A DNA stretch of 64,000 nucleotides from contig CAZOFH010000001.1 in NCBI GenBank assembly GCA_964579205.1, forward strand, positions 73,386 through 137,385, given 5' to 3'. The notes under the pieces are model-generated. The model made no database searches. It was not told the origin of the DNA and saw nothing but the letters and a program-made list of their open reading frames with translations. Both the position numbers and the translations under genes were made by a program. Below, piece by piece: positions 40,892-63,142 of this stretch; positions within the stretch are counted from its first letter, which is position 1; each line of letters begins with the position of its first letter. Source of the DNA: an uncultured Christensenella sp. (lineage in GTDB: Bacteria; Bacillota; Clostridia; Christensenellales; UBA1242).

Positions 40892-41009
40892 CAAAACAAA
40901 AAAGACCCAAAAGGACTTTTTTCTATTTATCAGATTATTTTATCCGTTTTTTATCGGATTGCTCTATCATTATTTTTTCCGTCAATACTGGTTGAATGAG
41001 AGTCTACGA

Positions 41010-42311: not shown

Positions 42312-42362
42312 ATCGCTAGTATATCACAAAAACTGCCGTCTAGCCAAGCAATTTTGATGTAT

Positions 42363-42872: not shown

Positions 42873-43080
42873 CTCGTCCCTCCCAAAATACAATTATCTA
42901 ATATGAATTAAACTGGAGATTTGTGAAATATGAGCACTCATAATACTCAAAAAATCGCGCAATTATTGCAAAAAGAAAAAGCAATCGAAAACGAATTGCT
43001 CATCAAAAAAAACAAAAACCTCGCGCGATCTCTGCGCAGGCTCTTGTCTACAAAACGGGAATTAGCCGCCCTAAGCGAGG

Positions 43081-43674
43081 CTAAATCTCTCTACGATCTA
43101 GAATAGCACGAGCAAGGGTCACCTCGTCTACATATTCGATATCGGTGCCCATACTCACCCCTTGGGCAATGCGAGTGACGCGCACCCCTAGAGGCTTGAG
43201 CAAGCCGCCAATATAGATAGCCGTAGCCTCGCCCTCTACCGTGGGGCTGGTAGCCAATATCACCTCGCGCACGCCGTCGTGCTGGATGCGAGAGAGCAAC
43301 TCTTTGATACGGATATCCTCGGCAGAGCGCCCTGCTAGCGGATTTAGCAAGCCGTGCAGCACGTGATAGGTACCATCAAACTCGGTGACGCGCTCTAGTG
43401 CCAACACATCTTTTGGCTCGGCGACCACGCAGACTAGCGACCTATCGCCACGCTCGCACACTTTGCAAACCTCTCTATCAGTAAAATTGCCACAGACCGA
43501 GCAATACCTGACCTCACGCTTTACGCTCAAGATAGCATCAGCGAATTCTCGCGCTCTATCCTCGGACATATTGATAATAGAATAGGCGTATCGAGTAGCC
43601 GTCTTGCGCCCTACGCCCGGCAATCTATTAAACGCCGCTATGAGGTGCTCTACAGGGGCGATAAAATTCTTCAA
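43081..43674 (-). CDS. recR: recombination protein RecR
   Basis: 197 aa with the LPGVGRKTA helix-hairpin-helix, a C4 zinc finger and a Toprim domain. Confidence 0.96.
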   Translation of the reverse strand: MKNFIAPVEHLIAAFNRLPGVGRKTATRYAYSIINMSEDRAREFADAILSVKREVRYCSVCGNFTDREVCKVCERGDRSLVCVVAEPKDVLALERVTEFDGTYHVLHGLLNPLAGRSAEDIRIKELLSRIQHDGVREVILATSPTVEGEATAIYIGGLLKPLGVRVTRIAQGVSMGTDIEYVDEVTLARAILDRREI

Positions 43675-43992
43675 TTAAAACATTCCCCCCGGCATTTGCG
43701 GAGCCATCTCGGCTAATTTTTCATCGATTTGACGATTTGCATCATTGACCGCAGCCATAATCAAGTCCTCTAGCATCTCTTTGTCCTCTGGGTCGATCAC
43801 CTCAGGTTTGATAATTACGCGAGTAATCTCGCGACGACCGCTCATCTCAATCTCGACCATTCCGCCGCCAGCATTTGCATAAAAGGTAGTAGCCTCCAGT
43901 TCTTCTCTATCCCTCTGCATTTGCTCCTGCATTTTTTGCGCCTGTTTTAGCAAATTTTGCATATTAGCGCCACCAAAACCATTAAAAGCCAT
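43675..43992 (-). CDS. ebfC: YbaB/EbfC nucleoid-associated protein
   Basis: 105 aa from MAFNGFGG with a GGAGG RBS; lies between dnaX and recR. Confidence 0.93.
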   Translation of the reverse strand: MAFNGFGGANMQNLLKQAQKMQEQMQRDREELEATTFYANAGGGMVEIEMSGRREITRVIIKPEVIDPEDKEMLEDLIMAAVNDANRQIDEKLAEMAPQMPGGMF

Positions 43993-44006
43993 TTCTATTT
44001 CCTCCA

Positions 44007-44477
44007 TTAATTTATTACAGTGATATCTGCGCCCAAAATCCGACGCAGACGCACGATTTTGTCCTCGCGTCCTGCGCCTGCCGTCTCATCTAGCACAAAT
44101 TCTATATTCACATTATAACCTAAATTGCGTAAACTTTCAACCAAATCACCACAATTTTGTGGTTTTCTCAGCATTTCATAATCTAGCTGGCTAGGCACGT
44201 GCACCCGCAAGGTGTCGCCCTCGAGCGAAAACTTGCCAAGGTTGACACAGACCGAATGCAGCATAATCTTGTTTGCCTTTTTGATAGCCAAGAGCGCCCT
44301 CCCCCACAGCACGCGGGCATCAGGCAGGGGCAGCTCCACCGCGGGAGCATATGGGGCTGCAGACGGCTCCTTAGTCATTGAGTTATTCTGCCCAAAACCT
44401 GCCGACTTATTCTGCCCCGAGCCCGCAGCAGCCTCCACAGGGATACAAATTTTACCCTTGAGTGCCAGCAGCATCAT
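44007..44477 (-). CDS. dnaX: DnaX C-terminal (tau-specific) segment as a separate -1 frame ORF
   Basis: 156 aa. Its ATG uses the last A of the A10 run that ends the upstream dnaX ORF. The W..AL..IKK...L.......F..EGD.L region resembles Firmicute DnaX domains IV/V. Confidence 0.65.
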   Translation of the reverse strand: MMLLALKGKICIPVEAAAGSGQNKSAGFGQNNSMTKEPSAAPYAPAVELPLPDARVLWGRALLAIKKANKIMLHSVCVNLGKFSLEGDTLRVHVPSQLDYEMLRKPQNCGDLVESLRNLGYNVNIEFVLDETAGAGREDKIVRLRRILGADITVIN

Positions 44478-45571
44478 TTTTTTTTTGCTTCATCGCCCAA
44501 GAGACTCAGCGCGGTAGTCTCAATGAGCAATGCTGGGTCAAGCGAATATTTTAGCGCAGCCTCAATTTTGCTAAACGCCTGCATAGCAGCATTGAGCCGA
44601 TTTACACTCTGAGCGTCGGCGATTTGGGTCATTTTTGCCACAGCGTCCGCGTCATAATCTCCGTCTAGTGCTGATGCACCGCAAGTTTTGATGACCAGCA
44701 GATCCCTAAATGTCTTGGTCAAGTCGTTGGCTGTGACCAAGAGGTTTTTGCCCGACTTGCGAATGACTGCAAATTCGTCAAAAAAGTCCTTTATCCGCTC
44801 CTCTAGGATAGCCGCGCCGAGGCTAAGGATAGTGGCACTATCGCTCACTCCTAGCACATTGACTACATCAGCGTAATGGATGTCGTTATTCGCAAAACTA
44901 GCGCACATATCGGCGATACTCAGCGCGTCACGCACACTACCTTCGCCAGCGCTCGCGATGAGGCTAACAGCCTGCGGCTCTGCCTGTATCCCGCTTTGGG
45001 CGAATACGTCTGATATCAGTCCTGCGATAACCTCGGTATTGATGAGTTTAAAATCAAAGCGCAGCACTCGCGAAAGGATAGTGGCGGGCAACTTGTGCAC
45101 TTCGGTAGTAGCCAAAATAAACACAGCGTGTAGAGGTGGCTCCTCTAGCGTCTTTAGCAATGCGTTGAATGCGCTAGTAGTCAGCATATGCACCTCGTCG
45201 ATGATATAGACCTTGTACTTGCCTACGGTCGGCGGGTATTTTACCTTGTCGCGCAGATCACGAATCTCCTCGACGCCATTATTACTAGCGGCGTCAATCT
45301 CGATAATGTCGATAGCACTACTCTCACGCAGAGCCTTGCACGCCTCGCACTCTCCGCAAGGCGACCCGTCGACTGGATGCTGGCAGTTTATTGCGCGCGC
45401 GAACACCTTTGCACAAGTAGTCTTGCCCGTGCCGCGACTGCCGCAAAACAGGTACGCGTGCCCTATCTGATCGTTTTTGATTTGGTTTTTGAGCGTCCGC
45501 GTCACGTGGTCTTGACCGATGACTTTGTCAAAACTGGTCGGACGAAATTTTCTATAAAGTGCTAGATACAT
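44474..45571 (-). CDS. dnaX: DNA polymerase III subunit gamma/tau, domains I-III
   Basis: 365 aa with GSRGTGKTT Walker A, a CxxCxxC zinc module and IIDEVHML. Ends ..GDEAKKK-TGA in an A10 tract. Confidence 0.93.
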   Translation of the reverse strand: MYLALYRKFRPTSFDKVIGQDHVTRTLKNQIKNDQIGHAYLFCGSRGTGKTTCAKVFARAINCQHPVDGSPCGECEACKALRESSAIDIIEIDAASNNGVEEIRDLRDKVKYPPTVGKYKVYIIDEVHMLTTSAFNALLKTLEEPPLHAVFILATTEVHKLPATILSRVLRFDFKLINTEVIAGLISDVFAQSGIQAEPQAVSLIASAGEGSVRDALSIADMCASFANNDIHYADVVNVLGVSDSATILSLGAAILEERIKDFFDEFAVIRKSGKNLLVTANDLTKTFRDLLVIKTCGASALDGDYDADAVAKMTQIADAQSVNRLNAAMQAFSKIEAALKYSLDPALLIETTALSLLGDEAKKK

Positions 45572-48771: not shown

Positions 48772-51558
48772 TTAGACTGGCTCAAAAACGGCGATTACTA
48801 CCGAGTCCATTACTTGCGATTTTTGGAAATGCGCCACCGCAGTGGTGCCCAGCGAATTGCCGTCCACATCCGTCCATTTGACGAACTTGTACCCATCCAT
48901 TGCCACAGCCTCGCAAGTGATCGTGCCAGCGTCGGCAAGGTTGTCTAAATCAGCCCCCAAGATGTACGCAGCGCCGCCCGTGGTCGCCTGCAGAGCCACA
49001 CCATTTACCGAGCCACTCGACCTCAGCCCCGAATACGCTCCCGAAGCAGTCTGCACATACACAGGAATGCTACCGTCCGCCTCAAAATCGTGCGAAATCA
49101 CCTCAAAATTGAGCGCAAACGCATTACTCTGCTCGTTCGCAAAATAGGTTACATTGGTAGCGAAATTAGTATTGCCCAATTCCGCCTTGCAATATGTGAT
49201 CTTTATCCAATTTACATTGTCAAATGACACCTTTGACACGTGGTACCCAGATGCAGGGATGATTTTGATAGTCGCGTTCTGCACTTCAGCATCGGCATAC
49301 TGTTCGCAAGAAAATTGCGTTGTCGCCCCCGTCATCGTCACACTTGCGCAAGCAATCCAGTACGCGTACAGCGTGAGGTTGGCAGTGTATTTTGACACGG
49401 TAATGTTTGGGTCACCGTCTATGTCGTAGATTTTCTGCCCACCGCCATTGGTCTGTGTAAAGTACCCGCGGAAAGAGTACCCTCGTCGAGTCGGCGGCGT
49501 GATGCTCAGCAAACTCACGTCGTATGTAGCCGTCACCGAGGTCGTGCCAGCATTCGTCGCCGATTGATTGTCTAGCGTAATCGTCACCGACACCGCCGTC
49601 CACACCGCATATAGATCCACCGTAGCGCCATTTGTGGAAGTCAAATTTCGTACGCTCGCCCCGTCAGTATACGACATCGAGCCCGTACTGCTGGTCGCCC
49701 AGCCCGAGAATGTATACCCCGTCCGCGAAAACGCATTGCTAGTCAGACTCTTGTACGAATTGTACGTGTGCGTCGAATTACTCATCGACCCGCTACCACC
49801 ATTTGAGTTATATCTTACATAATAAGTGTTGGCAGTCCATCCAGCATACAGTCTCACAGTACCGCCGTCTACCGCTGTCAAATTGCTGACACTGGCACCG
49901 TCGTTGTACTGTTTTGAACCGCTACTACTCGTCGCCCAGCCCGAGAATGTGTACCCTGTACGCGTGAATGAACAAGTACTCAAGTTTTTTGACACGCCAT
50001 AAGTGTGCGATGTACTGCTCATCGAGCCGCTACCACCATTTGAGTTATAACTCACTGTGTAGGTGTGCGGTATCCATTTTGCATATATAGTGGTGTTTGA
50101 TGAAAATGCCGATGTGCTGCTGACAGGAGTGCCGCTAGCGGTGTAGACTTGAGTGCCACCGCCATTTGTACTGGTATAATACCCTGCGAAATCATACCCC
50201 GTGCGAGTCGGAGTGCTGATATTATATAGGGTGTCGCCCGAATTGGCTAGCATCTTGTCCGTGCCGCCGCTACCGCTTTGCTTGTCAAAAGTCAGCACCG
50301 TGCCGTCGTGATGCGCCATCACATCAGTGAGCGATAGCAGTAGACACGGACGCACCGCGAGGCTAGAACATACACTACCACTACCCTCGGTATTGCCTGC
50401 TGCAGGCAAAGCGTACACCGACATAGAATAAGATGACTGACTACAACTTGCCGAACGAGTCCAAGTCCTGCAATACGCAGTACCGCTATCGTTGGTTTGA
50501 CTGGTACCTATGTAACTAGTCGATATCGAAGATGTGCTGCCATTGTATGTAGAGCGTTCTGCTGTGCTCATCTCCCACAGCCCGTCATAATCATCACAGT
50601 ACCCTACCTCAGCCATACTAGGTAGCCATAGATAATCTTCTCCCCAACTAGTGTAGTAGGTCGAATTTGCTGAGTAAAAATCCTGACTGCTGCTCACCCA
50701 AGAACCAGTGTAATTACTACTATTAGTCGAGGTCAAAGCCTCATTCGTTAGCCAATATGTAGACTGGTTTCTATTCGCTGGGTTTTGCAAAGCATTCATC
50801 CACGACATATTGTACGGCGTCTTGAGATAATAGGTTAGCCCCTTGCTTGCCACAGTGTATAGAGCGAAAATATGGTCGCTACTACCACTATAAGTATATT
50901 GCTCTATAGTGTCATTGTCTGTTGAATATCTCTTGCTATACGGGTTGTTGAGGGTCGCTGTACGAATGTAACTAGTACCGTACATGCTACTAGGGTATGT
51001 GCCAGCATACCTGTGGTACCAGTCGGCAGACCAGTCAGAATACAGCCCACCATTGACCAAGCCATAGTGTTCGCCCAAATTGTTGCTAGTAGTGCCCCAC
51101 TCAGATTGATAGTTGTTGCTCAGCCATAGCGTGGCTACTAGATCGCCATACCTGTCTTTGGAAACAAATGTCACTATCCAGTCTAGCCCGCCGAGCCGCA
51201 CTACTATACTTTGCCCATTAGTCTTGTTGTATGTTTTGGCACGCAAAGTAGCCGCAGTGCGCGGAGTAGTAGTCGCGCTCATACTGTTCATTTGATCATA
51301 AATATTCCCAGCACTGCCGTATATCATATTGACCATAGTCTCCACAGTATCACTATCAAAAGGTTTTTGCCCTGTCGCCGTAGTCTTGTTGACTAGCAGT
51401 TCATTCACACGCTTGAATGAACTAGTGTTTGACGAGGTAAACGCGTTTGACGGACGAAAAACCGTGTACCATAGCACCACCCCTGCGCCTATCACAGTGA
51501 TAATTATCATCAATATGGATATTATGCCACCCGTGGTGCGTACCCACTGCTTTTTCAT
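48772..51558 (-). CDS. N-terminally anchored surface protein with InlB B-repeat (Listeria-Bacteroides repeat) units, paralog 1
   Basis: 928 aa. N-terminal TM (IISILMIIITVIGAGVV), then a head domain of about 380 aa (..LWLPS..E.., W.RS, AVRPCLLL), then 4 units of TR.GY.F.GW...., then a shared C-terminal module. Confidence 0.9.
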   Translation of the reverse strand: MKKQWVRTTGGIISILMIIITVIGAGVVLWYTVFRPSNAFTSSNTSSFKRVNELLVNKTTATGQKPFDSDTVETMVNMIYGSAGNIYDQMNSMSATTTPRTAATLRAKTYNKTNGQSIVVRLGGLDWIVTFVSKDRYGDLVATLWLSNNYQSEWGTTSNNLGEHYGLVNGGLYSDWSADWYHRYAGTYPSSMYGTSYIRTATLNNPYSKRYSTDNDTIEQYTYSGSSDHIFALYTVASKGLTYYLKTPYNMSWMNALQNPANRNQSTYWLTNEALTSTNSSNYTGSWVSSSQDFYSANSTYYTSWGEDYLWLPSMAEVGYCDDYDGLWEMSTAERSTYNGSTSSISTSYIGTSQTNDSGTAYCRTWTRSASCSQSSYSMSVYALPAAGNTEGSGSVCSSLAVRPCLLLSLTDVMAHHDGTVLTFDKQSGSGGTDKMLANSGDTLYNISTPTRTGYDFAGYYTSTNGGGTQVYTASGTPVSSTSAFSSNTTIYAKWIPHTYTVSYNSNGGSGSMSSTSHTYGVSKNLSTCSFTRTGYTFSGWATSSSGSKQYNDGASVSNLTAVDGGTVRLYAGWTANTYYVRYNSNGGSGSMSNSTHTYNSYKSLTSNAFSRTGYTFSGWATSSTGSMSYTDGASVRNLTSTNGATVDLYAVWTAVSVTITLDNQSATNAGTTSVTATYDVSLLSITPPTRRGYSFRGYFTQTNGGGQKIYDIDGDPNITVSKYTANLTLYAYWIACASVTMTGATTQFSCEQYADAEVQNATIKIIPASGYHVSKVSFDNVNWIKITYCKAELGNTNFATNVTYFANEQSNAFALNFEVISHDFEADGSIPVYVQTASGAYSGLRSSGSVNGVALQATTGGAAYILGADLDNLADAGTITCEAVAMDGYKFVKWTDVDGNSLGTTAVAHFQKSQVMDSVVIAVFEPV

Positions 51559-51660
51559 ACCCATTCCCCTCCAGTTGTATTATTTTTTTGTGTCAGGGGC
51601 ACAGCCCCTGCATTGTAAAAAGGATAGACGGTCAAAATATACCTGTATAATGGCAAGCAT

Positions 51661-51705: not shown

Positions 51706-54700
51706 TCACTCGCTAGACATATTGTCGAGGTCGGTATTGATGTTGCCTGAGGTGATTGGGGCAAAGACAGCCACTACCACAGAGTCCATTACTTCAGACT
51801 TTTTAAAGCGCACCGAGGCAGCCGTGCTCAATACCGCACCGCTAGAGTCGGTCCAGTGCTTGAATTCATACCCGTATTGCGTGACAAACGCCGCACAAGT
51901 GATCGTGTCGTTATCAGCGAGATTTTCGACATCATCGCCCACGATGAATGCCTTACCGCCAAAGGTCGATTGCACCGCCACCCCTTCTAGTTTTGTAGCA
52001 CCTGCTGTCTTTAGTCCAGAATAGTTGCCTGATACAGTCTTGAGGTAAATTATAATACATCCGTCATCCTCAAAATCGTGCAGCATCATCTCAAATTTGA
52101 GCGCGAATACATTACTCTGCTCGTTCGCAAAATAAGTAACATTCATCGCATACGGCGTGTTGCCGATATCCGCCTTGCAGTAGATGACATCTATCCAGTG
52201 AGTATTGTCAAAAGAAAGTTGCGATATGTGATAGCCTGTCGCAGGAGTAATTTTGATAGTGGCATTAGGCATATATTTATCAAAGAACATCTCATCTGCA
52301 AATTGCGTCGTAGCGCCTGTCACTGTGGCATTTAGATAAGGTGCCCAGTACGCATATAAGGTGACATTTGAGGCAAAGGTCGACTTTGTGACACTCGGAG
52401 TGCCGTCCGCATTATAGATTTTTTGCCCTGCGCCATTGGTCTGTGTATAATATCCTGCGAAAACGTGTCTTGATGGACCGCCTGACGGAGGTGTAATATT
52501 AGACAATGCCGCATTGTATGTCGCAGAGACTGATGTGCTGCCTGCAGTCGTGGCGGATTGATTGTTGAGAGTGATTGTCACAGTCACCCCTTGCCATACA
52601 GCATACAGGTTGACCGTAGCACCGCTCGTGGTAGTCAAGTTTCTGACACTTGCACTATTATTATATACTTTAGCCCCATTACTGCTCGTTGCCCAGCCCG
52701 AGAACGTGTAGCCTGTGCGAGTGAAGGCATTAGCAGTTAGATTTTTGTATGTCCCATATTCATGAGTTGAGTTACTCATCGTGCCGCTACCGCCGTTTGC
52801 ATTGTATTTTATATAATAGGTGAACCCAGTCCATTTTGCATACAGAGTAGTGCTAGATGTAAATGTCGAGGTAGAGTTAACTGGCGTACCATCTGCATTG
52901 TAGATTTTCGTTCCCCCACCATTTGTACTAGTGTAATATCCTCCGAATGTATAGTAATCCTTTGTAGGTGGAGTGATATTAGGCAAAGTATTATTCTCTA
53001 CCGTAACGGATGTAGTACCTGCAGTCGTCGCAGATTGATTGTCAAAAATGAGGGTTGTAGTGTTATCGCCTACTCCTCCTTCCCATACTGCATAAAGGGT
53101 AATCGTCGAACCAGCTGATGCAGTCAAATTACTTACGCTTTGCCCATTAGTATAAGCCACTGACCTAATTGGACTAGTCGACCACCCGGCGAAAAAACTG
53201 TCAGTTTTGGTAAATGTATTTGTAGTCAAGTTCTTTGCCACATCATAGGTGTGAATAGAATCGCTCATCGTACCTGTGCCACCGTTAGCATCATATTTTA
53301 CCGTGTATGAGATAGGTGTCCATTGGGCATACAGTGTGGTATTAGATGTGAATGTCTCGGTTGAATAAGTTGAGTAACTACTACTCTTGTAAACTTGCGT
53401 ACCTCCACCGTTTTGCTGAGTATAATATCCGCCGAATGTATACCCTGTACGGCTAGGCTCCTCAATAGCTCTTAAATTCTTTATTTGCGTGCCAGACGCT
53501 ACAAAATACTTTTGAGTCCCTGCAAAAGTAGCAGATTGATTGTCAAAGGTTATAGTAATATCGGTAGAATCATTACTCCTCCACACTGCATAAAGATATT
53601 CCGAATTACCACTGTTCATATTGATGACACTTTGCCCATCATAATAATCTACCCTTCCATCGTTAGCATAAGAACTATATCGTGCCCAACCTTTGAAAGT
53701 ATATCCAGAACGAGTAAACGTATTTGAATTCAAGTACGATGCCACGCCGGCAGTATGAGTAGAGTTACTCATAGTACCTGTGCCGCCATTGGCTTTGTAA
53801 TACACGGTGTATGTTCTAGGTGTCCATTTGGCGTAAAGCGTGATATCGGAGGTGAATGTTTCGTCTGAGGAAGTTGGTGTACCATTTGAATTATAAACTT
53901 GCGTACCGCCACCGTTTGGCAGGCTATAATACCCACCAAAAGTGTAGCCAGAGCGCGAAACAGTCTCATTCATTGCAGGTAAATTACCATTTGGCACTAT
54001 CCAATGAACCTTACACCCAACAGTAGTAGGGACCTGCATATCAAAAGTGATAGATATCATTGTGCCACTGTATGCCTCCCAAACAGCATATAGATTAATC
54101 GTAGAATAATCTGATGATGACAAATTGACCACATTCGCTTGATCCGCATAGGCCACGCTACCGCTAGCACTCGTCGCCCAACCTTTAAACAAATATCCCC
54201 TTCGAGTATAATTGCATAAAGACAAGTTCTTTGCACTATCATAAGTATGAGTAGTATTACTCATTGAGCCGCTACCACCGTTTGCGTTGTATTTGACATT
54301 ATAAACAATCGCATCCCATTTCGCATAAAGGACAGTGTTTGAGGTAAATGTAGATGCCGATATACCTGATACACCACTTGACAAATATACCCTTGTTCCC
54401 GCTCCATTAGTACTAGTGTAATAACCTCCGAATTTGTATCCCGTACGAGTAGGTGGAGTAATATCGGGTAAAGTATTAGTATCTAGCGTAACAGATGTAG
54501 TACCTCCTGTCCCGCCTTGTTTATCAAGAGTGAGGACTATTACATTCCATTTTGCATAAAGAGTAGTGTCCGATGCAAAAGTAGATGTAGAGTTGACTGG
54601 CGTACCATCTGCATTATATATTTTCGTTCCTCCACCATTGGTGCTCGTGTAATAACCGTCGAATTTGTATCCCGTACGAGTAGGCGGAGTAATGGATGGC

Positions 54701-56010
54701 AGGGTATTATTTGACACCGTAATAGATAAAGATCCACCTATACCGCCTTGTCTATCAAGCATGAGCATAACAGCATTGGTATCAGCATCAACGGCATCTG
54801 CTGCACTGTCTAGATTAAGTAGCAGGCACGGACGGACGGCGTTAGGATACCAATCAACATCTGGGCCACTATCACCATAAATATCACTTCCACAACCATC
54901 GACACTATATGCAGCAGAAGATCCATAGTCCGCAAGCACCGAGCGACTCCATGAATATGGATAAACTTCAGTATTCTCAGTTACATTATCCGAGATATAT
55001 TCTGAGCACCCATCATATGTAGACCGCTCAGCATTATTTGTCTCCCAAAGTCCATCATTTGTATCATCTAATCCCATTTCTACAATGCTTGGCAAAAATA
55101 GATAATCTGTCCCCCAGTTTGTATATCCTGCTATGCTAGTATAATCTAATTCAAGTGAACCATAAACACCATAACTACCCGATGCTGTTGACAAAGAATC
55201 GTTACTATGCAAACTTTCCTCACCTATCAAACTAGGGTCTTGCACAGCATTTATCCAAGGCATCTTATTAGGGGTAACCAAATAATTTGTCAGTCCTTTG
55301 CTAGCGACGGTATACAACGAGAAAATATGGTCAGAGGATTGGGGGGTACCATTTGTCAATGTTTCACTATCTGTGGCATAAGTTCTGTTGTTAGGATTAT
55401 TAAGTGTCTCTACTCGAATATAACTAGTACCATACATATCCGCAGGATACGTCGAATTTTCTGTGATTGAGCCTCTATTCTCATAATACCAATCCCCCGA
55501 CCAAATAGAGTAGAGCCCACCATTTACCAATGCTGTGTCATAGTCATCATTCAATCTTTGCTGTAGACCAATCTCATCACTATAATCTTCACCACCTGTA
55601 CCGTTCCAGCCCCAAGCCTCTTGGTGATTGTTACTAAGCCACAGGGTAGCAATGAGGTTGCCGTCAGTATCATTTGAGACGTAAGTCACAATCCAGTCTA
55701 GTCCGCCGAGGCGCACTACGATACTCTTGTTAGCGGTCTTGTTGTATGTTTTGGCGCGCAAATCCGCCGCGGTCAGAGGAGTGACCGCGGTGCTGGTTTT
55801 TAGACTAGACAACTGAGTGCTGACGCTGCCGCTAGCCCCATAAATCATATTAACCAAAGTTTTGAGAGTTGCGCGCCTAAAAGGAGTCGATCCTGTCGCC
55901 GTCGTTGGGTTTGTAAGTAATTCATCAATATGTACAAAACTATTCATATTCGATGACGAAAAGGCATCGGGATCCGATACCTTTTTGACTGTGGATAAGT
56001 GACTCACCAA
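51706..56010 (-). CDS. giant InlB B-repeat surface protein, paralog 2; the as-sequenced ORF lacks its start codon and part of its membrane anchor
   Basis: 1434-aa ORF with the same head and C-terminal modules as paralog 1 and about 12 B-repeat units. The frame stays open upstream through LISLIIVVVISLSAWLL (a TM helix) to a poly-G tract. The ATG plus RBS at 56095 is one frame off. Confidence 0.88.
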   Translation of the reverse strand: MVSHLSTVKKVSDPDAFSSSNMNSFVHIDELLTNPTTATGSTPFRRATLKTLVNMIYGASGSVSTQLSSLKTSTAVTPLTAADLRAKTYNKTANKSIVVRLGGLDWIVTYVSNDTDGNLIATLWLSNNHQEAWGWNGTGGEDYSDEIGLQQRLNDDYDTALVNGGLYSIWSGDWYYENRGSITENSTYPADMYGTSYIRVETLNNPNNRTYATDSETLTNGTPQSSDHIFSLYTVASKGLTNYLVTPNKMPWINAVQDPSLIGEESLHSNDSLSTASGSYGVYGSLELDYTSIAGYTNWGTDYLFLPSIVEMGLDDTNDGLWETNNAERSTYDGCSEYISDNVTENTEVYPYSWSRSVLADYGSSAAYSVDGCGSDIYGDSGPDVDWYPNAVRPCLLLNLDSAADAVDADTNAVMLMLDRQGGIGGSLSITVSNNTLPSITPPTRTGYKFDGYYTSTNGGGTKIYNADGTPVNSTSTFASDTTLYAKWNVIVLTLDKQGGTGGTTSVTLDTNTLPDITPPTRTGYKFGGYYTSTNGAGTRVYLSSGVSGISASTFTSNTVLYAKWDAIVYNVKYNANGGSGSMSNTTHTYDSAKNLSLCNYTRRGYLFKGWATSASGSVAYADQANVVNLSSSDYSTINLYAVWEAYSGTMISITFDMQVPTTVGCKVHWIVPNGNLPAMNETVSRSGYTFGGYYSLPNGGGTQVYNSNGTPTSSDETFTSDITLYAKWTPRTYTVYYKANGGTGTMSNSTHTAGVASYLNSNTFTRSGYTFKGWARYSSYANDGRVDYYDGQSVINMNSGNSEYLYAVWRSNDSTDITITFDNQSATFAGTQKYFVASGTQIKNLRAIEEPSRTGYTFGGYYTQQNGGGTQVYKSSSYSTYSTETFTSNTTLYAQWTPISYTVKYDANGGTGTMSDSIHTYDVAKNLTTNTFTKTDSFFAGWSTSPIRSVAYTNGQSVSNLTASAGSTITLYAVWEGGVGDNTTTLIFDNQSATTAGTTSVTVENNTLPNITPPTKDYYTFGGYYTSTNGGGTKIYNADGTPVNSTSTFTSSTTLYAKWTGFTYYIKYNANGGSGTMSNSTHEYGTYKNLTANAFTRTGYTFSGWATSSNGAKVYNNSASVRNLTTTSGATVNLYAVWQGVTVTITLNNQSATTAGSTSVSATYNAALSNITPPSGGPSRHVFAGYYTQTNGAGQKIYNADGTPSVTKSTFASNVTLYAYWAPYLNATVTGATTQFADEMFFDKYMPNATIKITPATGYHISQLSFDNTHWIDVIYCKADIGNTPYAMNVTYFANEQSNVFALKFEMMLHDFEDDGCIIIYLKTVSGNYSGLKTAGATKLEGVAVQSTFGGKAFIVGDDVENLADNDTITCAAFVTQYGYEFKHWTDSSGAVLSTAASVRFKKSEVMDSVVVAVFAPITSGNINTDLDNMSSE

Positions 56011-56050
56011 GAGCCACGCTGATAGAGAAATTACAACAACAATTATTAGG

Positions 56051-56095
56051 CTAATTAATGCCCCCCCCCCCCCGGGTCAGAAAGCCTTTATTCAT
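56051..56095 (-). other. orphaned 5' start segment of the adhesin 2 gene (MNKGFLTRGGGGIN-stop), out of frame with the main ORF
   Basis: AAGGAGAAAAACGCG-ATG. It reads through the G13 tract into TAG. Removing one G joins it to the TM helix and the main ORF. Confidence 0.7.
56061..56073 (-). repeat. homopolymeric tract, C13 on plus strand = G13 in the coding sense
   Basis: Counted directly in the sequence: 13 consecutive C. Confidence 0.95.
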
Positions 56096-56306
56096 CGCGT
56101 TTTTCTCCTTTTTTTGCCTATTTTTTGACCCCAGTTTTGGGGGGCGAAAATGCCCACTTTTTACAACTTTCGCCCGCCGCAAAACTTGAGGTGTTTGTTA
56201 ATTTTTGGCTGCCGTCCGCTTTAACAAAAGCGCACGGAATATTCCTGTCATCCTGATGACAGTTTTCTTTCAGCCAAACCGACCTTTGCGATTGCTTTAC
56301 ATTATT
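56096..56306 (-). promoter_or_regulatory. long structured 5' leader of adhesin 2
   Basis: Three-way junction at 56205-56277: closing helix TTGGCTG/CAGCCAA, a 7-bp hairpin CTGTCAT/ATGACAG and an 11-position hairpin with one mismatch. There is also an 8-bp helix GGGCGAAA/TTTCGCCC at 56142-56175. Confidence 0.5.
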
Positions 56307-56335
56307 ATTGTAACTACTTTTTTCAAAAATATCAA
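56307..56335 (-). promoter_or_regulatory. sigma-A type promoter upstream of adhesin 2
   Basis: TTGATA, 17 nt, TACAAT. Confidence 0.5.
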
Positions 56336-56412
56336 CTAAATTCGACCACTTTTTCAAAAATTTTTAAATTTTTTTGTTTCTTTGCATTTTTTTGGTGAAA
56401 AGGATGGTATTT

Positions 56413-56450
56413 TGACAAAAAACAAAACGACAACGCACTGTCGGCAGTGC
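56413..56450 (-). terminator. intrinsic terminator closing the E2 repeat / ttcA 3' region
   Basis: GCACTG-CCGA-CAGTGC followed by GTTGTCGTTTTGTTTTTTG on the minus strand. Confidence 0.6.
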
Positions 56451-56557
56451 TATGTGCAAACAAATGCAATATGGGGTTCGCCTGCGGCTCACAGAGTCCA
56501 CGGAGTGCCTTGCACTCCTCTGAATGACACTGCGCGGCTGCACCCCGAACCCGCAAT
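56450..56557 (-). repeat. hairpin-box repeat, copy E2 (3' of the ttcA-like gene)
   Basis: Sense strand: ATTGCGGGTTCGGGGTG..GTCATTCAGA GGAGTGC AAG GCACTCC GTGGACTCTGTGAG CCGCAGGCGAACCCC..ATTGCATTTGTTTGCACATAG. Confidence 0.8.
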
Positions 56558-56588
56558 AATCAAATTAATTGTGGCGTAGATCCCCATA

Positions 56589-56672
56589 GCGGCTTGCCGC
56601 AAGGCGCCCGCAGGGTGCCTGATGCGCCGAATGGCGCATAGTGCGTGCGACAGCACGCACGCGGCAAGCCGC
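56589..56672. repeat. perfect 84-nt four-way junction (cloverleaf-like palindromic unit)
   Basis: P1 is 12 bp (GCGGCTTGCCGC/GCGGCAAGCCGC). It encloses a 7-bp arm (one G:T pair), a 6-bp arm and an 8-bp arm with 3-4 nt loops and 0-3 nt linkers. Confidence 0.75.
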
Positions 56673-56741
56673 CCCCGTCTAGAGACACGCACAGTTCAAC
56701 AGACAGCGCCCCCACTACCACGCTACTGCCACAACCCACGC

Positions 56742-57452
56742 TCAGTCGAACTTGAGGTGATTGCGCTCGGGGTGAGTCAACGCACTCAATATATGCTCGT
56801 GCACATGCGCGATACGCGGATTGAGCGAAGCGATATAATTCTTGATGAACTCGCGCTCAGTCTTTTTGTCGGCAGGGCAATCATTATGGAAAACGGGCAG
56901 CCCAGCGGCGAGCGCGGTCGTCTCACTCTCCCAAACCAAAACCATTGGTCTAATGACGGTCATCCCGGTACGGTCAAGGCGCGTCACGGGCGCAAAAGTC
57001 GACAATCTGCTCTCAAAAAACATCGACAAAAAGAAAGTCTCAATCAAATCGTTGGCGTGATGCCCCAGTGCGATTTTGTTGCAGCCGAGTGCGGTCGCCT
57101 CGGACGCGAGCATTCCGCGTCTCAATCTCGCGCACAGCGAACACGGATTACTCTCTTTGCGCACCTCGAATAGCAACTCATATATGCGCGACGGAATCAC
57201 CTTGTGCTCTATCCCGAGCGAACGACAGTACTCAGATATTTGAGTAAAATCTGACTCGCCATTGTGCATATCAATAGTGAGCGCGACCAACTCAAACTTG
57301 TGTGGATAATAGCGCTGAATATGCGCCAAAAAAGTGAGCAGCGCCAGACTATCCTTTCCGCCGCTCAGCCCGACAGCGATTTTGTCGCCGTCCTCAATCA
57401 TATTATATCTATCCAAAGCCTTGCGGACTCTGCCCTCAGCCTTACTTCTCAT
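56742..57452 (-). CDS. ttcA: PP-loop ATPase, TtcA-family tRNA 2-thiocytidine biosynthesis protein
   Basis: 236 aa with the SGGKDS PP-loop and CSLC / C..D.CP cysteine motifs. Confidence 0.85.
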   Translation of the reverse strand: MRSKAEGRVRKALDRYNMIEDGDKIAVGLSGGKDSLALLTFLAHIQRYYPHKFELVALTIDMHNGESDFTQISEYCRSLGIEHKVIPSRIYELLFEVRKESNPCSLCARLRRGMLASEATALGCNKIALGHHANDLIETFFLSMFFESRLSTFAPVTRLDRTGMTVIRPMVLVWESETTALAAGLPVFHNDCPADKKTEREFIKNYIASLNPRIAHVHEHILSALTHPERNHLKFD

Positions 57453-57607
57453 AAACTTCTCCCTAAATAATATAAGATTATTTTATCAAAAAACGGCTAA
57501 TTTTTCAATAGAAAGAGGAAAATTCGCCATAAATATTTGATTTTTGTGAAAATTTGTCACTTTTTGGATTTTTTGTGCATAGTGTATTAGTAAAATGCGA
57601 GGTAAAA

Positions 57608-57856
57608 ATGGCAACACCACATCCACATATTATCAACATAGTAGCCGACTACTATCTGCTGCACAAATCGACGATGCGTGACTGCGCAAAGCATTTTGGG
57701 CTAGGCAAAAGCACCATACACAACTATCTGCACATTTATCTAAAAAAAGTCGACCCCGAAAAATACAAAAAAGTGAGTGCTTTATCGCAACTCAACTTTT
57801 CTGAAAAACACATTCGCGGCGGAAACGCCACGCGTCAAAAATTTAGACCAGAGTAA
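57608..57856 (+). CDS. spoIIID: sporulation transcriptional regulator SpoIIID
   Basis: 82 aa from MATPHPH with a GAGG RBS. GLGKSTIHNYL HTH and KHIRGGNATRQKF align with B. subtilis SpoIIID (GVSKSTVHKDL, RHLRGGEATKLKY). Confidence 0.8.
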   Translation: MATPHPHIINIVADYYLLHKSTMRDCAKHFGLGKSTIHNYLHIYLKKVDPEKYKKVSALSQLNFSEKHIRGGNATRQKFRPE

Positions 57857-58832
57857 GTTTACGCTTGTTCGCAAAGTACCACCAAGCGAACCCACCACCT
57901 ATCAAGAGGCAACTGCCACCAGCAAAGTATAGCCATAGCATACTAGGATTTTTTTCCCATTTGGCGTACAGTGTCACAGGGGTGGTAAAAATGTAATACT
58001 TGCCCACGTGAGAGCCTTCGGCACAATCAGGAGTCGTATACCAGCCCGCAAAAGTGTAGCCCGGGCGAGTGGGATTGAGATCGGTGAGCAAGCCTTTTTG
58101 CCCATAGTTGTCATACGCGTAGTCGATATTCGCCCTAAAAGGGATCGGATCATACCCTAGCGACTCGTCGGCAAAGGTGATAGTATAATTGAGCATAGCG
58201 AACTTGCCATACAAGTTGATATTGCTAGTCACGCCGCTCAAAGTGGTAATAAGCGTCTGATACAATGGGTCCTGATACCATCCGACGAACTCGTGACCTG
58301 CGCACCTCGGGATAAACTCATCCGCGGTCAAGTCGATATTGGTAGCAGCAGTGACGGTATTATTGAGTGCTGTAAAACCAGCCGCAGGGGTGACCGCACC
58401 ATACTCTACCCCAGTATATGCAAAACTAACTGTATACTCGGTCAACTGCCAAAAGGCGTAGAGTGTAATAATGCCAGCGACAGCCATATCCTGTGCATCA
58501 GTCGCGGTCAATACAAAATTGCCGCTACTGTCTACATCCAAAATCGAAGTTTTACTAAATCCCCAATACGCGAATGTATACCCTGCTGCAGCACTAGGCG
58601 CCTGCAATGTCAACGGCAAGGCAGACGCTGCCACGGTAGCGGGATTGGCAGTAGTGAGAGCGGGATGCCCCTCTGACGAATCGAGATACTGGATAGTATA
58701 CATAATATCCCCTGCTGTCTCGCCCTCTGCAAATGCTGAGCGCATATTCAAAAACGCACTCCCCGAAAACACAAAAAACGAGCAGAGCAAAGCACAAATA
58801 AAACCTATCAAAACAGACTTTTGCTTGTACAT
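57843..58832 (-). CDS. InlB B-repeat protein with N-terminal signal peptide and C-terminal TM anchor
   Basis: 329 aa from MYKQKSVLIGFICALL with a GAGG RBS. Four GY.F.GW-type units. The C-terminal WLYFAGGSCLLIGGGFAWWYF helix is followed by KRK. Confidence 0.85.
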   Translation of the reverse strand: MYKQKSVLIGFICALLCSFFVFSGSAFLNMRSAFAEGETAGDIMYTIQYLDSSEGHPALTTANPATVAASALPLTLQAPSAAAGYTFAYWGFSKTSILDVDSSGNFVLTATDAQDMAVAGIITLYAFWQLTEYTVSFAYTGVEYGAVTPAAGFTALNNTVTAATNIDLTADEFIPRCAGHEFVGWYQDPLYQTLITTLSGVTSNINLYGKFAMLNYTITFADESLGYDPIPFRANIDYAYDNYGQKGLLTDLNPTRPGYTFAGWYTTPDCAEGSHVGKYYIFTTPVTLYAKWEKNPSMLWLYFAGGSCLLIGGGFAWWYFANKRKLTLV

Positions 58833-59008
58833 TAATTTTACCTCGACATTATTATAACCTAAAAATGACATAAAATCAATTATTTTGGGGCGTTTGGTCG
58901 AGTAAAAATAATTTTTTGCACTTTCAGACGCACTCCGAGCCTCCCCCGCCCACAAAAACGGCAAGCACTACCGCGCGATAGGCAGACACTCACACCCCCG
59001 ACACGAGA

Positions 59009-59031
59009 CAAAAAAAAGACCGCCTAGGTCT
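59009..59031 (-). terminator. intrinsic terminator after the 82-aa gene
   Basis: AGACC-TAGGC-GGTCT followed by T8 on the minus strand. Confidence 0.65.
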
Positions 59032-59065
59032 TTCCCTCATCGAGAAAACGCGGCGGTCTAAAATA

Positions 59066-59314
59066 TTAGTTTGTGATAATACTCTTGATTTCGTTGAGTT
59101 GCTCAAGGTTGAGAATCTCAATCTTTTTGTGAGCGTCCTGATATGCCAATTTGATAATTTGCGGGTAATCGCCCTCTTCTACCTTCTTTAGCATAATGTC
59201 AGCGAGACTGACCAACTCTTCTTTGGTCTGATAATCAATCGAAGTCAAAATCTTCTCAAACACATTGTAACTCATTTCTACTACTTTTGGGTCATCCATA
59301 GTCAAATTTTCCAT
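59066..59314 (-). CDS. small acidic helical protein (82 aa), unknown function
   Basis: GAGAGG RBS, 27 nt downstream of the 1266-aa ORF. Confidence 0.6.
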   Translation of the reverse strand: MENLTMDDPKVVEMSYNVFEKILTSIDYQTKEELVSLADIMLKKVEEGDYPQIIKLAYQDAHKKIEILNLEQLNEIKSIITN

Positions 59315-59341
59315 AAAATGTTACCTCTCAAATTATTCAAA

Positions 59342-62300
59342 TTAGAATTTCTCTTGCTCAGTCTGTGCCGAAGATGTGCTCTCTGCGGTATACTCATCCA
59401 AAACCTTTTGCCCAGTGACGCGAGTCGTCTCGTGGGTAGCGGTCTGAGTCTTGCGGATAGTCATAGATTCGGCTCTGTCGATAGCAGCACCAGTCAAAGC
59501 GCTCTGACGCAAATCCCTAATCTCGCCCGACTCGCTTTCAGGAGGAGTGACGCCATCTAGTATTGCATAAACAGTATCTCTGAGGCTATCCTTGAGCAGC
59601 GCCCTACCAGCCTCTTCTCTAGCAGCACGAGTGCTCTTGCCCTCTAGTTGGGTAGCGCCGCTGGTCTCTAGCATCTTGTTTAACTTGCTAGTAGTAACGC
59701 TAATCTTTTCGCTGCCAAACTTGTCTTTGTTGACCTCACAGAACTCCTTGACAAGGTTCACAATATAGCCAGTGAGTCTATCAATTTGCTCGACTGCCTG
59801 AGTCTCCTCAGGGAAACTCTGTTTGTTATAACTGCTGTTGGTCTGCGTCCTGCCGTGACTGGCTGGGTACATTACCACAGTCGCAACTGCGCCGACCGAA
59901 GCGCGCTCTTTGTAATACTTGCGCTCAGCCTCGAGGACATGCTTTTCCTCCTCGCGGCAATCCTCTAGCATCTTGGCACACTCAGCAGTTTGAGTCATTC
60001 TCTCACTAGAGTACTCCATCACTAATTCAAACAAAATCTCTCTACACTTGGTCTTTGCCTGAGTGTCGCGCTTTGAAATCGCCTCTGCAGACTCAAAACG
60101 CGCTGCGTCGTAGACAAAGTCAACCTGCTTTAGCACAGGAGCCTCCTTTTTGGCTTTGGCAATAGCGGTCTTGACCTCTACTGTGCTCTCTGTATTGGTT
60201 CCAAAAGTAGCGCCTTTGTCTATCACGGTGTCGGTGCTTTGGGTAGTGCTTTGGGTGGTTTGACTAGTGGTATCAACCACCTGCTCTGTCCCAAGTCCTT
60301 GGGCTTTTGCCTCGGCGTTCTCTTGCGAAGCATTAGTCTCTTGGGTACTACCTGTCACACCACCGAGCAATGCAGGAGACGGTGCTGGCGCGACAGCCTG
60401 CTGAGCAAATTCGTCCAAAGACTTTTGCTGCCCGCCCGACTGGCCAGTGCCATACCTATCCAAAGTCATCTGCACCACTCTATCAGCGTTTGTGTTGTGC
60501 TGGCTAGTACCTGCTGAATAAGCGTGCCCGCCGTTTTGGGTGAATATCCTCACGCTGTCGGCAATGATGTAGTAAATGATGGTATTAAAATAGTTGTTGT
60601 AAGTATTATTAATATTAATATTGATATTACCTGCAGGAGCCTGCTGCCCAGCGTTTTGATTTTGCTGAGCGTGCTCTTTTGCCGCGTCAAAGATCGCCTG
60701 CTGCTCAGGAGTAACGGTAGACTCTGCCTCTTGTTCACCAGTCTGCCCTTGCTCGCTGCCCACTCTCAAACCTGTCTGTGCAGACCTGTTAGGTGCGGCT
60801 GGCTCTGGCGCTGGCTCTGGATTAGGTGCAACCTCTGTATCGGGGCTCTCACCAGTCTGCTCTTGCGTATTGGCAGAGTCGACAATCTTGCCACGGCTCT
60901 TGTCCATACGACGGAAAACATCAGCCATCACACGCTGCTGCTCATCAGTTAATTCTACAACCGTGCTATTAGGCGTCTCAGGAGTAGGTGTAGTCTCAGA
61001 AGTCTCGTCTTGGGGAGTACCATTAGTCTCTGTATTTTGCCCAGAGGTCTGCTCGTCGCCCACTCTCAAACCTGTCTGTGTAGACCTGTTAGGAGCGGCT
61101 GGCTCTGGCGCTGGCTCTGGATTAGGTGTAACCTCTGTATCGGGGCTCTCACCAGTCTGCTCTTGCTGTGCATCAGGCTTTTGCTTGCTTTCTTCCGCCT
61201 CTGCTCGTCTAGCGGCACGCTCTTTACGCCTACGCTCGACCTCCTCGTCGGTTATTTCCTCACCCGGCTCAAAGCCTACAGTGTCTGGCAAATCATCTCT
61301 CGTCAAATCCTCCAGAGAAGGAATGATCCTTTGTGGCTTGCCAGCAGTATCGGTTTTATCAGTATTATCTGTATCGCCATTTTCCTCGCCAGAAGTGCCC
61401 TCTTGCTCGGACTGCTCTTCTTTCTTTACTCTAGTGATACGGTCAAAAACCCCTTGCATCCTACTCATCTGCTCAGGTGTCAGCCCAGCACCCTGCGGCA
61501 CTGTAGGCTCTGGGGTGAATTTTGGCTCAGGCGCTGGTGCTGGGACAGTCTCATCCTTATGTTGAGGTTCTGGCGTAACCGTCTCACCACCTGGTGTCAT
61601 TTCGCGCCCTGCCTCTTGTCCCTCAGGCGACGCCGACTGCTCCTCGGTCTGCTCTCCTGTAGGCTGCCTACCAGCCTCAAATATACGCATCAGAGCCTGC
61701 TCGATAGCGGCAGAATTCATATCTGGCTCGAGTCTCAGGCTTGGGTCGGTAATGACATTGTTGGCATAAATCAACCCTTGCATACTAGGGTTGCCGTCCA
61801 TTTTGGCAGCAATCGCGTCGAGCGAAATCCCCTTTGCCTCTGCATAAGCCTGCATATCAGGATTTAGGTCATAAGCAAAATTGTTTACACCAATCGCGTA
61901 CATATTAGCGATCAACGGCATAAAGTGTGCCGCATCTTTCTCATCCTCTAGCCCATCCATCACGATGCTAAGGTGCTGCTCAGCCTCTAGCCTAAAGGTG
62001 TCGCTCATCAAGCGCGCCTGCTCTACAGGCAAATCAAGCATATAGCACACGTCACTAGCGATAAGACACGTAGCAGCGCTAGTCAGTCTACCTCTCACCC
62101 TCAAGGCATTACTATTGCTAAATACCTCAGGAGAAGGCAAATTGGTCGCAGCCTGATTAGCCAAAATCACGCGCTCAGCCAAATTACCTAATTGGTCAGT
62201 CTGAAAGCCACATAGGCATTTGATCACGCCGTACAATTTCTCAGTGTTTGTGTTGTCAGCAGGGTACTCAATCTTGTAGCGTTTTGGCCAGCCAGTAGGG

Positions 62301-63142
62301 CTAATACCGTTTTTGAGCGGCGAAACTCTCCTCTTGATGACGTCGAGCGCACCAAAGAACCTCTTCGGTCTGAATCTAATAGCCTTTTCACTCACCGAAC
62401 TACCGTCAGCATCACCCATTGCTGCGAACTCAATACCCACTTTGTTTGAGATACTGCGCATCACTTGCTCAAACTTTTCATCATTGCTGTCGAACTCACG
62501 AGTAAAAGTCTTGAGCGGCACCCCATTCTCTAAGGTAGGAGTGTAGTAGCCCAAGTTTGGGTCAGCTTTGGCAGGCTTTGTATTAGCGTCGAAATTCTCC
62601 GGATGCTTGAGATTGCGCTCAGCACGCAGTACCGCGATGAATTGCTTTACACTCATAGTAGGCTCTCTGTCGGTAATCTTTGCCCACGCGTCCATAAAAG
62701 GAGTGTCCACGCTAGCGGCACCCGAATTGAGCTTTATCCTATAAATAGCCTGCTTTATCTCAGAATTGCGAATCTTACCCAACAGCGCACTACTATTGTA
62801 CCCGTGCGAAAGCAATGAGTACGCAGTCCTCATTTCAGGGCTCACCTTGTGCGCATCCAAATCCGCTAATAAATAAGGATTGTGAAATGCCGCCTCAAAA
62901 TCAGCGCGCGTGCTCAACTTTGCACTCTCAAAAGAATGCCCATAAAAATCACTCGGAATAACTCGAGTCAAGTCCTCTATCATCCTACGCGAAGAAAAAG
63001 GCACACGCCCGACCTTGAGCTTTGCACGGGTAAACCAAAAGACTCTTTTGCGAATGTTGTCTTGAAACTCAAAACCGCTCAAAACGCCATTCTCCGCGGT
63101 CAAATCCTCCTCGTATGGTGAAAATCTCTCTCCTTGAGACAT
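59342..63142 (-). CDS. 1266-aa orphan protein: N-terminal globular region of about 500 aa, long Pro/Glu/Thr/Gln-rich disordered centre, helical C-terminal region
   Basis: Uninterrupted ORF with TAGGAGGG RBS and its own promoter. No signal peptide, and no family recognised. Confidence 0.8.
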   Translation of the reverse strand: MSQGERFSPYEEDLTAENGVLSGFEFQDNIRKRVFWFTRAKLKVGRVPFSSRRMIEDLTRVIPSDFYGHSFESAKLSTRADFEAAFHNPYLLADLDAHKVSPEMRTAYSLLSHGYNSSALLGKIRNSEIKQAIYRIKLNSGAASVDTPFMDAWAKITDREPTMSVKQFIAVLRAERNLKHPENFDANTKPAKADPNLGYYTPTLENGVPLKTFTREFDSNDEKFEQVMRSISNKVGIEFAAMGDADGSSVSEKAIRFRPKRFFGALDVIKRRVSPLKNGISPTGWPKRYKIEYPADNTNTEKLYGVIKCLCGFQTDQLGNLAERVILANQAATNLPSPEVFSNSNALRVRGRLTSAATCLIASDVCYMLDLPVEQARLMSDTFRLEAEQHLSIVMDGLEDEKDAAHFMPLIANMYAIGVNNFAYDLNPDMQAYAEAKGISLDAIAAKMDGNPSMQGLIYANNVITDPSLRLEPDMNSAAIEQALMRIFEAGRQPTGEQTEEQSASPEGQEAGREMTPGGETVTPEPQHKDETVPAPAPEPKFTPEPTVPQGAGLTPEQMSRMQGVFDRITRVKKEEQSEQEGTSGEENGDTDNTDKTDTAGKPQRIIPSLEDLTRDDLPDTVGFEPGEEITDEEVERRRKERAARRAEAEESKQKPDAQQEQTGESPDTEVTPNPEPAPEPAAPNRSTQTGLRVGDEQTSGQNTETNGTPQDETSETTPTPETPNSTVVELTDEQQRVMADVFRRMDKSRGKIVDSANTQEQTGESPDTEVAPNPEPAPEPAAPNRSAQTGLRVGSEQGQTGEQEAESTVTPEQQAIFDAAKEHAQQNQNAGQQAPAGNINININNTYNNYFNTIIYYIIADSVRIFTQNGGHAYSAGTSQHNTNADRVVQMTLDRYGTGQSGGQQKSLDEFAQQAVAPAPSPALLGGVTGSTQETNASQENAEAKAQGLGTEQVVDTTSQTTQSTTQSTDTVIDKGATFGTNTESTVEVKTAIAKAKKEAPVLKQVDFVYDAARFESAEAISKRDTQAKTKCREILFELVMEYSSERMTQTAECAKMLEDCREEEKHVLEAERKYYKERASVGAVATVVMYPASHGRTQTNSSYNKQSFPEETQAVEQIDRLTGYIVNLVKEFCEVNKDKFGSEKISVTTSKLNKMLETSGATQLEGKSTRAAREEAGRALLKDSLRDTVYAILDGVTPPESESGEIRDLRQSALTGAAIDRAESMTIRKTQTATHETTRVTGQKVLDEYTAESTSSAQTEQEKF
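60755..61166 (-). repeat. in-frame direct duplication with exactly 300-bp period inside the orphan gene
   Basis: About 112 bp at 60755-60866 is nearly identical to 61055-61166. It encodes QEQTGESPDTEV.PNPEPAPEPAAPNRS.QTGLRVG twice. Confidence 0.9.

Follow-up and report, generated by a model that had tools for sequence, protein, structure and literature searches.

Why does a long surface-protein gene, intact over 1,451 codons, fail to be read from its own start codon because of a run of 13 G placed just before the only segment that could anchor its product? The gene lies in a 64-kb window (the whole stretch of DNA analysed here, from which all positions are counted), and its G run could be a slippage switch, a miscounted homopolymer, a site of recoding, the lesion of a decaying gene or the incidental spelling of a glycine spacer. 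The features on which the answer depends are the following:

56307 to 56335, minus strand: candidate sigma-70-type promoter TTGATA-17-TACAAT, a weak match to consensus about 210 nt 5' of the ATG
56105 to 56110, minus strand: ribosome-binding site AAGGAG, 9 nt 5' of the ATG
56093 to 56095, minus strand: ATG start codon of the surface-protein gene
56061 to 56073, minus strand: G13 homopolymer (C13 on the plus strand), the longest of the window and the proposed slippage switch
56051 to 56095, minus strand: product of the sequence as it stands (OFF), a 14-codon leader MNKGFLTRGGGGIN followed by TAG (56053-56051)
56002 to 56061, minus strand: signal-anchor or transmembrane (TM) helix ALISLIIVVVISLSAWLLVS, translated at 9, 12 or 15 G only
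51706 to 56061, minus strand: gene body of 1,451 codons, encoding an N-terminal domain (about 430 aa), nine Flg_new repeats and a Flg_new_2 domain
48772 to 51564, minus strand: paralog of 930 aa with the same architecture and GGGTGGC (51526-51532) at the site equivalent to the tract

The sequence reproduced both the position of the G13 run after the ATG and the early end of the ATG frame that the original prediction had described. The distance from the ATG to the tract is 22 nt, and the frame reads ATG AAT AAA GGC TTT CTG ACC CGG GGG GGG GGG GGC ATT AAT TAG, ending after 14 codons. On the coding strand the sequence continues 3' of the tract (from 56061 onward) as CATTAATTAG..., and the frame beginning at the last G of the tract, ALISLIIVVVISLSAWLLVSHLSTVKKVSDPDAF..., is open for 1,451 codons, to 51706; read across the end of the tract, this main frame gives ...GGGG-ALISLIIVVVISLSAWLLVSHLSTVKK.... 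When the tract was resized in silico from 8 to 17 G and each version translated, full-length proteins of 1461, 1462 and 1463 aa were obtained at G9, G12 and G15, respectively, and the remaining lengths gave truncated peptides of 11-15 aa. The arithmetic proposed earlier, with 12 or 15 G as ON (1462 aa at G12) and 13 or 14 G as OFF, was thus exact. A change of one nucleotide in either direction at the tract toggles the reading frame, and the G13 form found in the window is out of frame. The tract follows the start closely and precedes the sole TM/export segment of the protein; in translation it encodes a Gly run that separates this segment from the charged N-terminus, and its length would thus set the gene ON or OFF.

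The claim that G13 is the longest homopolymer of the window also held, the runner-up being a T10 at 44477-44486 and the next longest G/C run having only 6 nt. By chance the window should contain about 5e-4 C runs of at least 13 nt if a first-order model is assumed, and 1.4e-3 if the bases are iid. Sigma-70-type consensus sites, such as the candidate promoter listed above, were observed twice against 1.0 expected from shuffles. A search of positions 55800-57000 for an inverton-type switch returned merely weak or short inverted repeats, none of them bracketing a promoter.

The protein encoded behind the tract has a single strongly hydrophobic segment, the TM helix, with a best 19-residue Kyte-Doolittle window of 2.85 at residues 12-30 of the ON protein and a helix predicted by AF2 at residues 2-22 of the post-tract sequence. 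No further stop or frameshift was found in the 1,451 codons after the tract. The repeat region matched PF09479 (Flg_new, the Listeria-Bacteroides repeat) in nine stretches (E=1.5e-63; score 211 bits, cut-off 27) and TIGR02543 (54 bits, cut-off 20.95), and a divergent InlB B-repeat model, PF18998, came slightly below its cut-off of 23.6 (22.8 bits, E=8.9e-05). No LPXTG-like motif was present near the C-terminus, which places the protein outside the sortase-anchored class. An N-terminally anchored, repeat-rich surface protein is therefore a well-supported description, and "adhesin", a label drawn from the Flg_new repeats and the surface anchoring, is a reasonable guess.

The N-terminal domain gave zero Pfam matches at E<=1 (residues 1-451), and an NCBIfam scan of the whole protein yielded nothing significant on it. 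An AF2 model built from 15 homologs reached a mean pLDDT of 69.8 and a pTM of 0.77, and Foldseek searches with this model against PDB and BFVD returned zero matches at E<=0.001. DUF6273 (PF19789) matched 2 of the 15 aligned homologs (best E 2.2e-06) and not the window protein, and precomputed annotations placed it on about 10 of 40 homolog hits. This domain has been modelled as C-type-lectin-like in phage receptor-binding proteins (PMC10743442), and an IgA protease of the gut carries it N-terminally, annotated there as a domain of unknown function (PMC12402451). The fold of the roughly 430-aa N-terminal domain may be a hitherto undescribed one, distantly related to DUF6273. Across the 15 aligned sequences, 49 columns of the domain (54709-56061, minus strand) are invariant, including GGLxW, ATLWL, GGLY and RP.

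Immediately downstream, the paralog begins M(GM)KKQWVRTTGGIISILMIIITVIGAGVVLWYTV... and shares the N-terminal architecture of the surface protein, in agreement with the homology that had been claimed for the two TM-helix regions. It spells its Gly-Gly as ACG GGT GGC, so that its GGGTGGC is interrupted and can be seen as a "locked ON", non-slippery version of the tract. In the interval that separates the two genes no terminator was seen on the minus strand, and exact-sequence look-ups of the paralog and of other window proteins in the protein collection gave no match. The neighbourhood comprises dnaX, recR, topA and genes for a CCA-adding enzyme, a SpoU methylase, a PP-loop ATPase and a GIDA-family protein (PF01134), and these housekeeping neighbours indicate a chromosomal locus with no obvious mobile element.

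Two other genes near the locus deserve mention in their own right. The plus strand at 57554-57856 encodes a SpoIIID-family HTH regulator (PF12116, E=5.8e-18), opposite to the Flg_new surface-gene cluster in which it is embedded, between the family genes at 57843-58964 and 56742-57452, and its position is kept in all same-species contigs. Further along, 59342-63142 (minus strand) encodes an acidic low-complexity protein of 1,266 aa without a Pfam match, in which a segment of about 40 aa is duplicated, EQTGESPDTEV[T/A]PNPEPAPEPAAPNRS[T/A]QTGLRVG. This protein varies by strain, having 1,228 aa in contig L083 and an identity of about 95%, as against about 97% for the neighbour genes.

The best relatives of the surface protein belong to metagenome-assembled genomes (MAGs) of Christensenella sp. 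UBA4651, of uncultured Christensenella/Catabacter sp. and of uncultured Clostridia. G/C runs of at least 8 nt were listed in 78 homologous loci, amounting to 437 kb of contigs with one genome per species; the MAGs of this census are Christensenella/Catabacter-like and short-read assembled, with contig names that indicate SPAdes, MEGAHIT or IDBA. Without exception the 39 runs, spread over 36 loci, fell either in the 5'-terminal part of a family gene or within a -35/-10 promoter spacer, an enrichment whose statistical weight is overstated by the 39 of 39, as paralogous tracts are not all independent events. On the coding strand 38 of them are G, the other being a C9. Counting also the loci L088 and L089, there are 41 uninterrupted tracts, namely one G8, 16 G9, 19 G10 and five G11, and the 13 of the window is the longest among the family members compared. 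The comparison with relatives on which the original prediction could have failed thus came out in its favour, the tracts being not uniformly interrupted; some paralogs do carry an interrupted version, the neighbour of the window gene included.

The tracts of the family occur at three positions. The first, which is that of the window gene, is the stretch from the start codon to the TM helix (MKHFVTHRGGG, MYQNREQNPQGGG, MRRKFAGGG, MNNDNLKNLRGGG); the second is directly after the TM helix or lipobox (...LAALSGGGIFDF, ...FEQAGGGISQ); and the third is the promoter spacer, between TTGACA-like and TATAAT-like hexamers (for example TTGACAataG10caatacTATAAT; one is a C9). When ON and OFF were called from starts backed by a Shine-Dalgarno motif, 13 of the intragenic tracts were in frame and 12-13 out of frame, and in the OFF tracts the frame broke exactly at the tract and a long intact ORF resumed directly 3' of it. 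A family with about half of its intragenic tracts out of frame, and the break always at the tract, has the pattern that phase-variable genes leave in consensus assemblies, a half-shifted, tract-confined pattern that neither ordinary genes nor decaying pseudogenes show.

Individual loci illustrate the same behaviour. The homolog P0012, encoded on the Logan contig L001 and about 40% identical to the window protein, starts MKKAFLTH-GGGG-LFSLITIVV with an uninterrupted G11 that is in frame, and its gene shares with the window gene the ribosome-binding context AAAAAAGGAGAAAA-N4-ATG. One ortholog was recovered in two independent assemblies, L088 (ENA ERZ27286917) and L021 (a MAG from a Hadza sample), whose 5,163 aligned bp are identical except for one SNP and the tract, G10 in L088 and G11 in L021; the G10 form is ON and encodes the 720-aa protein P0029, whereas the G11 form is frameshifted and OFF. 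Two paralogs of a single MAG, L015 (G10, ON) and L033 (G8, OFF), have flanks that are 88-92% identical. On the other hand, many family members have no tract, among them all seven loci of MAG CALWPF01 and the paralog in the window, so that the family can do without the tract, which appears as an add-on regulatory device. For the homologs P0004 and P0010 no DNA source was traced; P0010, which starts directly after the TM helix, may be a truncated start call.

Because of the homologous tracts, their mixed frames and the G10/G11 polymorphism of one ortholog, we favour phase variation, and we put at about 0.8 the probability that the G13 run works as a hypermutable contingency tract, a slippage on/off switch of the surface-protein gene. 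Homopolymer runs of 9 or more slip during replication, and by this behaviour the tract of the window would gain or lose G through slipped-strand mispairing. Cells with 9, 12 or 15 G would make an N-terminally anchored surface protein of 1,461-1,463 aa (ON), and at other lengths translation would end after 11-15 codons (OFF). The G13 allele would be OFF and a single G deletion would turn it ON; OFF cells would produce the 14-residue peptide and lack the surface protein. The length of the window's own tract would be expected to vary within the population, with switching both frequent and reversible and a clonal population consisting of a mixture of ON and OFF cells. Such bet-hedging would leave a large repeat-rich surface protein either exposed to host antibody, phage and binding partners or hidden from them, and by polarity the switching might reach the downstream paralog too.

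How far the count of 13 can be trusted bears directly on the first alternative, an assembly or sequencing artefact in which the true tract has 12 (or 15) G, the gene is intact and nothing switches. Exact look-ups of flanking window proteins located the same species in five Logan/ENA samples, with contigs 99.9-100% identical to the window over 31148-45214 and 56644-60824 and two more same-species contigs about 97% identical. The Logan/ENA alignments contained zero indels over about 18 kb, the T10 run included, so that, for homopolymers of up to 10 nt at least, the window assembly shows no tendency to indels. All same-species contigs end short of the tract, at 56644 (L085, L086 and L087), 56672 (one contig) or 56199 (L084), and strict and loose DNA-pattern scans of JGI metagenome contigs for this locus gave 0 matches; this exact tract is represented by one sequence, the window itself. 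A divergent strain with about 97% identity elsewhere drops to 77% across 56199-56760, and a 451-aa N-terminal query against 5.8 billion proteins found no match more than 50% identical, whereas neighbours of the gene do have close relatives in that collection. The contigs ending at a common boundary, the drop to 77% and the scarcity of relatives together identify the locus as strain-variable, and for metagenome assembly this means that same-species contigs break near a strain-variable surface-gene locus.

The boundary itself lies in the intergenic region 5' of the surface-protein gene, where three contigs from different samples share the exact end point 56644.

The artefact draws support from this coverage of the tract by the window assembly alone, from the fact that homopolymers of at least 11 nt are the hardest for every platform and from Bifidobacterium breve, whose RefSeq length of G11 differs from a majority of G12 at about 60% (PMC9187656). 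The count of 13 may accordingly be off by one, or it may be the majority call from a mixed population; it is only as reliable as the assembly, and the same holds for the OFF state. Since the B. breve RefSeq length is not the majority length, "13, OFF" is best read as the consensus of a probable mixture. Nevertheless, a miscount by one would still leave an uninterrupted G12-13, which is intrinsically unstable, the indel-free comparison with independent Logan/ENA assemblies argues against a general defect, and homologs assembled with SPAdes, MEGAHIT or IDBA show both frames and the G10/G11 polymorphism. A miscount would alter the reported state and leave the switch itself unaffected, and we regard the artefact as an improbable account of the locus.

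Programmed recoding would give the gene a fixed low expression from G13, through RNA-polymerase slippage or +1 ribosomal frameshifting on GGG. Long homopolymers are known to promote transcriptional slippage, a subject on which PMC9187656 cites reviews and studies, and in the same genome the A10 run of dnaX is apparently used for a -1 shift to the tau C-terminus. However, recoding sites keep one frame arrangement, whereas the present homologs, and even a single ortholog, occur in both; no stimulatory structure and no stop codon adjoining the shift site were seen at the tract, and the expression of the comparable B. breve G tracts was ascribed by their authors to replication slippage (PMC9187656). 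As the frame relation is not conserved, recoding is disfavoured as the main mechanism and seems to us quite unlikely in that role, although transcriptional slippage or recoding may add leakiness on top of a DNA switch.

The dnaX gene is a finding of its own. It is split at the A10 run (44474-44486, minus strand) into ORFs at 44474-45571 and 44007-44477: the 0 frame reads GCA AAA AAA AAA TGA and ends at 365 aa, its product covering positions 1-361 of the gamma/tau model PRK05563, which has 567, and the other 156 codons are in the -1 frame. For a tau-like full-length product, ribosomes would have to shift by -1, or transcriptional slippage would have to insert one A. In E. coli dnaX the frameshift yields the short form, and the window gene is predicted to be the reverse, with the shift needed for the long form. 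Both the split and the run length are identical in the independent Logan contig L080 (ungapped, 99.9% identical).

Decay into a pseudogene, by a frameshift at a chance G-rich site that inactivated the gene permanently, would agree with a gene that is out of frame as sequenced and lies in a strain-variable locus. Yet the nine Flg_new repeats remain recognisable and the 1,451 codons carry no other damage; the only lesion in 4.4 kb is the tract, which recurs at homologous positions in the family, and one slippage event restores the frame. Such decay is very improbable. Finally, GGG makes up 23% of the Gly codons in the genes of the window and the paralog uses GGT GGC, so that the peptide does not require a pure-G spelling (an interrupted, non-homopolymeric spelling of the tract is GGTGGAGGTGGC). 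A poly-glycine linker, with the run selected as a Gly spacer between the N-terminus and the TM helix and its G spelling incidental, is hardly credible, since the conservation of Gly-Gly(-Gly) in the peptide, even in the tract-less paralog (RTTGG-IISIL), is set against a tract in which each Gly codon and both flanking bases are G, against the half of homologous tracts that are out of frame and against the same tracts in non-coding promoter spacers of family genes.

With the slippage switch as the preferred reading, the other two tract positions extend its scope. The promoter-spacer tracts of related MAGs, in promoters recognised by consensus only, would be a transcriptional form of the switch. 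Tracts of G9-G10 (one C9) in spacers of 15-20 nt were found at L025, L038, L043, L050, L051, L052, L058, L066, L072, L073 and L075; in MAG CANQKH01 five of five loci are of this type. MAG CANQOO01 (L048, L059, L062 and L067) contains tandem paralog arrays starting M(K/R)(R/H)KFA-GGG-(I)FDKLK with G9 or G10, in which seven tracts were recovered and the ON/OFF state differs between adjoining copies.

Up to seven tracts per MAG are present in the recovered loci, and we lean towards the view that Christensenella/Catabacter-like Clostridia run a multi-gene poly-G "phasome" in which one expanded family of surface proteins, anchored by a TM helix or lipobox, gained such switches repeatedly at three control points and provides combinatorial variation. 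These gut Clostridia are health-associated and mostly uncultured. If the proposal is true, the lineage diversifies its cell surface stochastically via many poly-G switches, which bears on the pressure exerted in the gut by IgA immunity and by phages. For annotation, about half of the family genes resemble pseudogenes or receive truncated start calls.

Slippage-driven phase variation is textbook knowledge in Gram-negative pathogens. To our knowledge, there is one well-studied commensal example, the Bifidobacterium pili, and for gut commensals we know only of invertons and epigenetic switches being discussed in this context. Literature searches for Christensenella or Christensenellaceae with phase variation or homopolymeric tracts returned incidental co-mentions only, and in full-text searches we found no paper that connects phase variation of the slippage type with Christensenellaceae-like Clostridia, with proteins of Listeria-Bacteroides repeats or with those containing DUF6273. 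The mechanism is thus already known; the lineage and the protein family are new for it.

The classical poly-G/C contingency loci in 5' coding regions are those of Neisseria, Haemophilus, Campylobacter jejuni and Helicobacter. Such loci are mentioned in the introduction of PMC9187656 and in a review (PMC11868660). Like the present family, they have a 5' run that toggles the frame, several surface-structure loci per genome and mixed ON/OFF states. They belong, however, to Gram-negative pathogens and pathobionts and not to an uncultured or anaerobic commensal lineage of Firmicutes type, and the tracts described here, unlike theirs, are concentrated in one paralogous family.

Homopolymer switches in promoter spacers are known from the poly-G/C tracts of N. 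meningitidis porA and opc and from the poly-A tracts of Mycoplasma hyorhinis vlp. The genes of related MAGs with G9-G10 (one C9) in the promoter spacer resemble them, and given the spacers of 15-20 nt, tract length would tune transcription. In contrast to porA, opc and vlp, the window gene has its tract within the coding region, and the hexamers of its relatives are candidate promoters by consensus.

A surface protein with the same repeats, SZO08560 of Streptococcus zooepidemicus, is described as surface-anchored and carries Listeria-Bacteroides repeats behind an invertible promoter (PMC2654543). Like the window protein it has PF09479 repeats and is proposed to be phase-variable; its proposed switch is recombinase-mediated promoter inversion, whereas that of the window gene would be slippage, in a region with no bracketing inverted repeats.

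The closest parallel comes from the sortase-dependent pilus genes bbr_0113 and bbr_1889 of B. breve UCC2003, in which replication slippage at a G tract was shown experimentally (PMC9187656). The first pilin has its secretion signal and its body in two ORFs split by G11/G12, and UMI-based sequencing revealed replication slippage and showed that in-frame lengths became enriched in the mouse gut (PMC9187656). B. breve belongs to the Actinomycetota and the window to Christensenella-like Clostridia, and the B. breve protein is an LPXTG pilin, whereas that of the window is a TM-anchored Flg_new-repeat protein without LPXTG. Unlike the B. breve pili, the window family, known from sequence alone, also has tracts behind the TM helix and within promoter spacers. 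Both systems nevertheless belong to Gram-positive gut commensals and place the tract a few codons into the gene, behind a very short upstream ORF; in both, an in-frame length is needed for export or assembly, as predicted here, and related species carry tracts as well.
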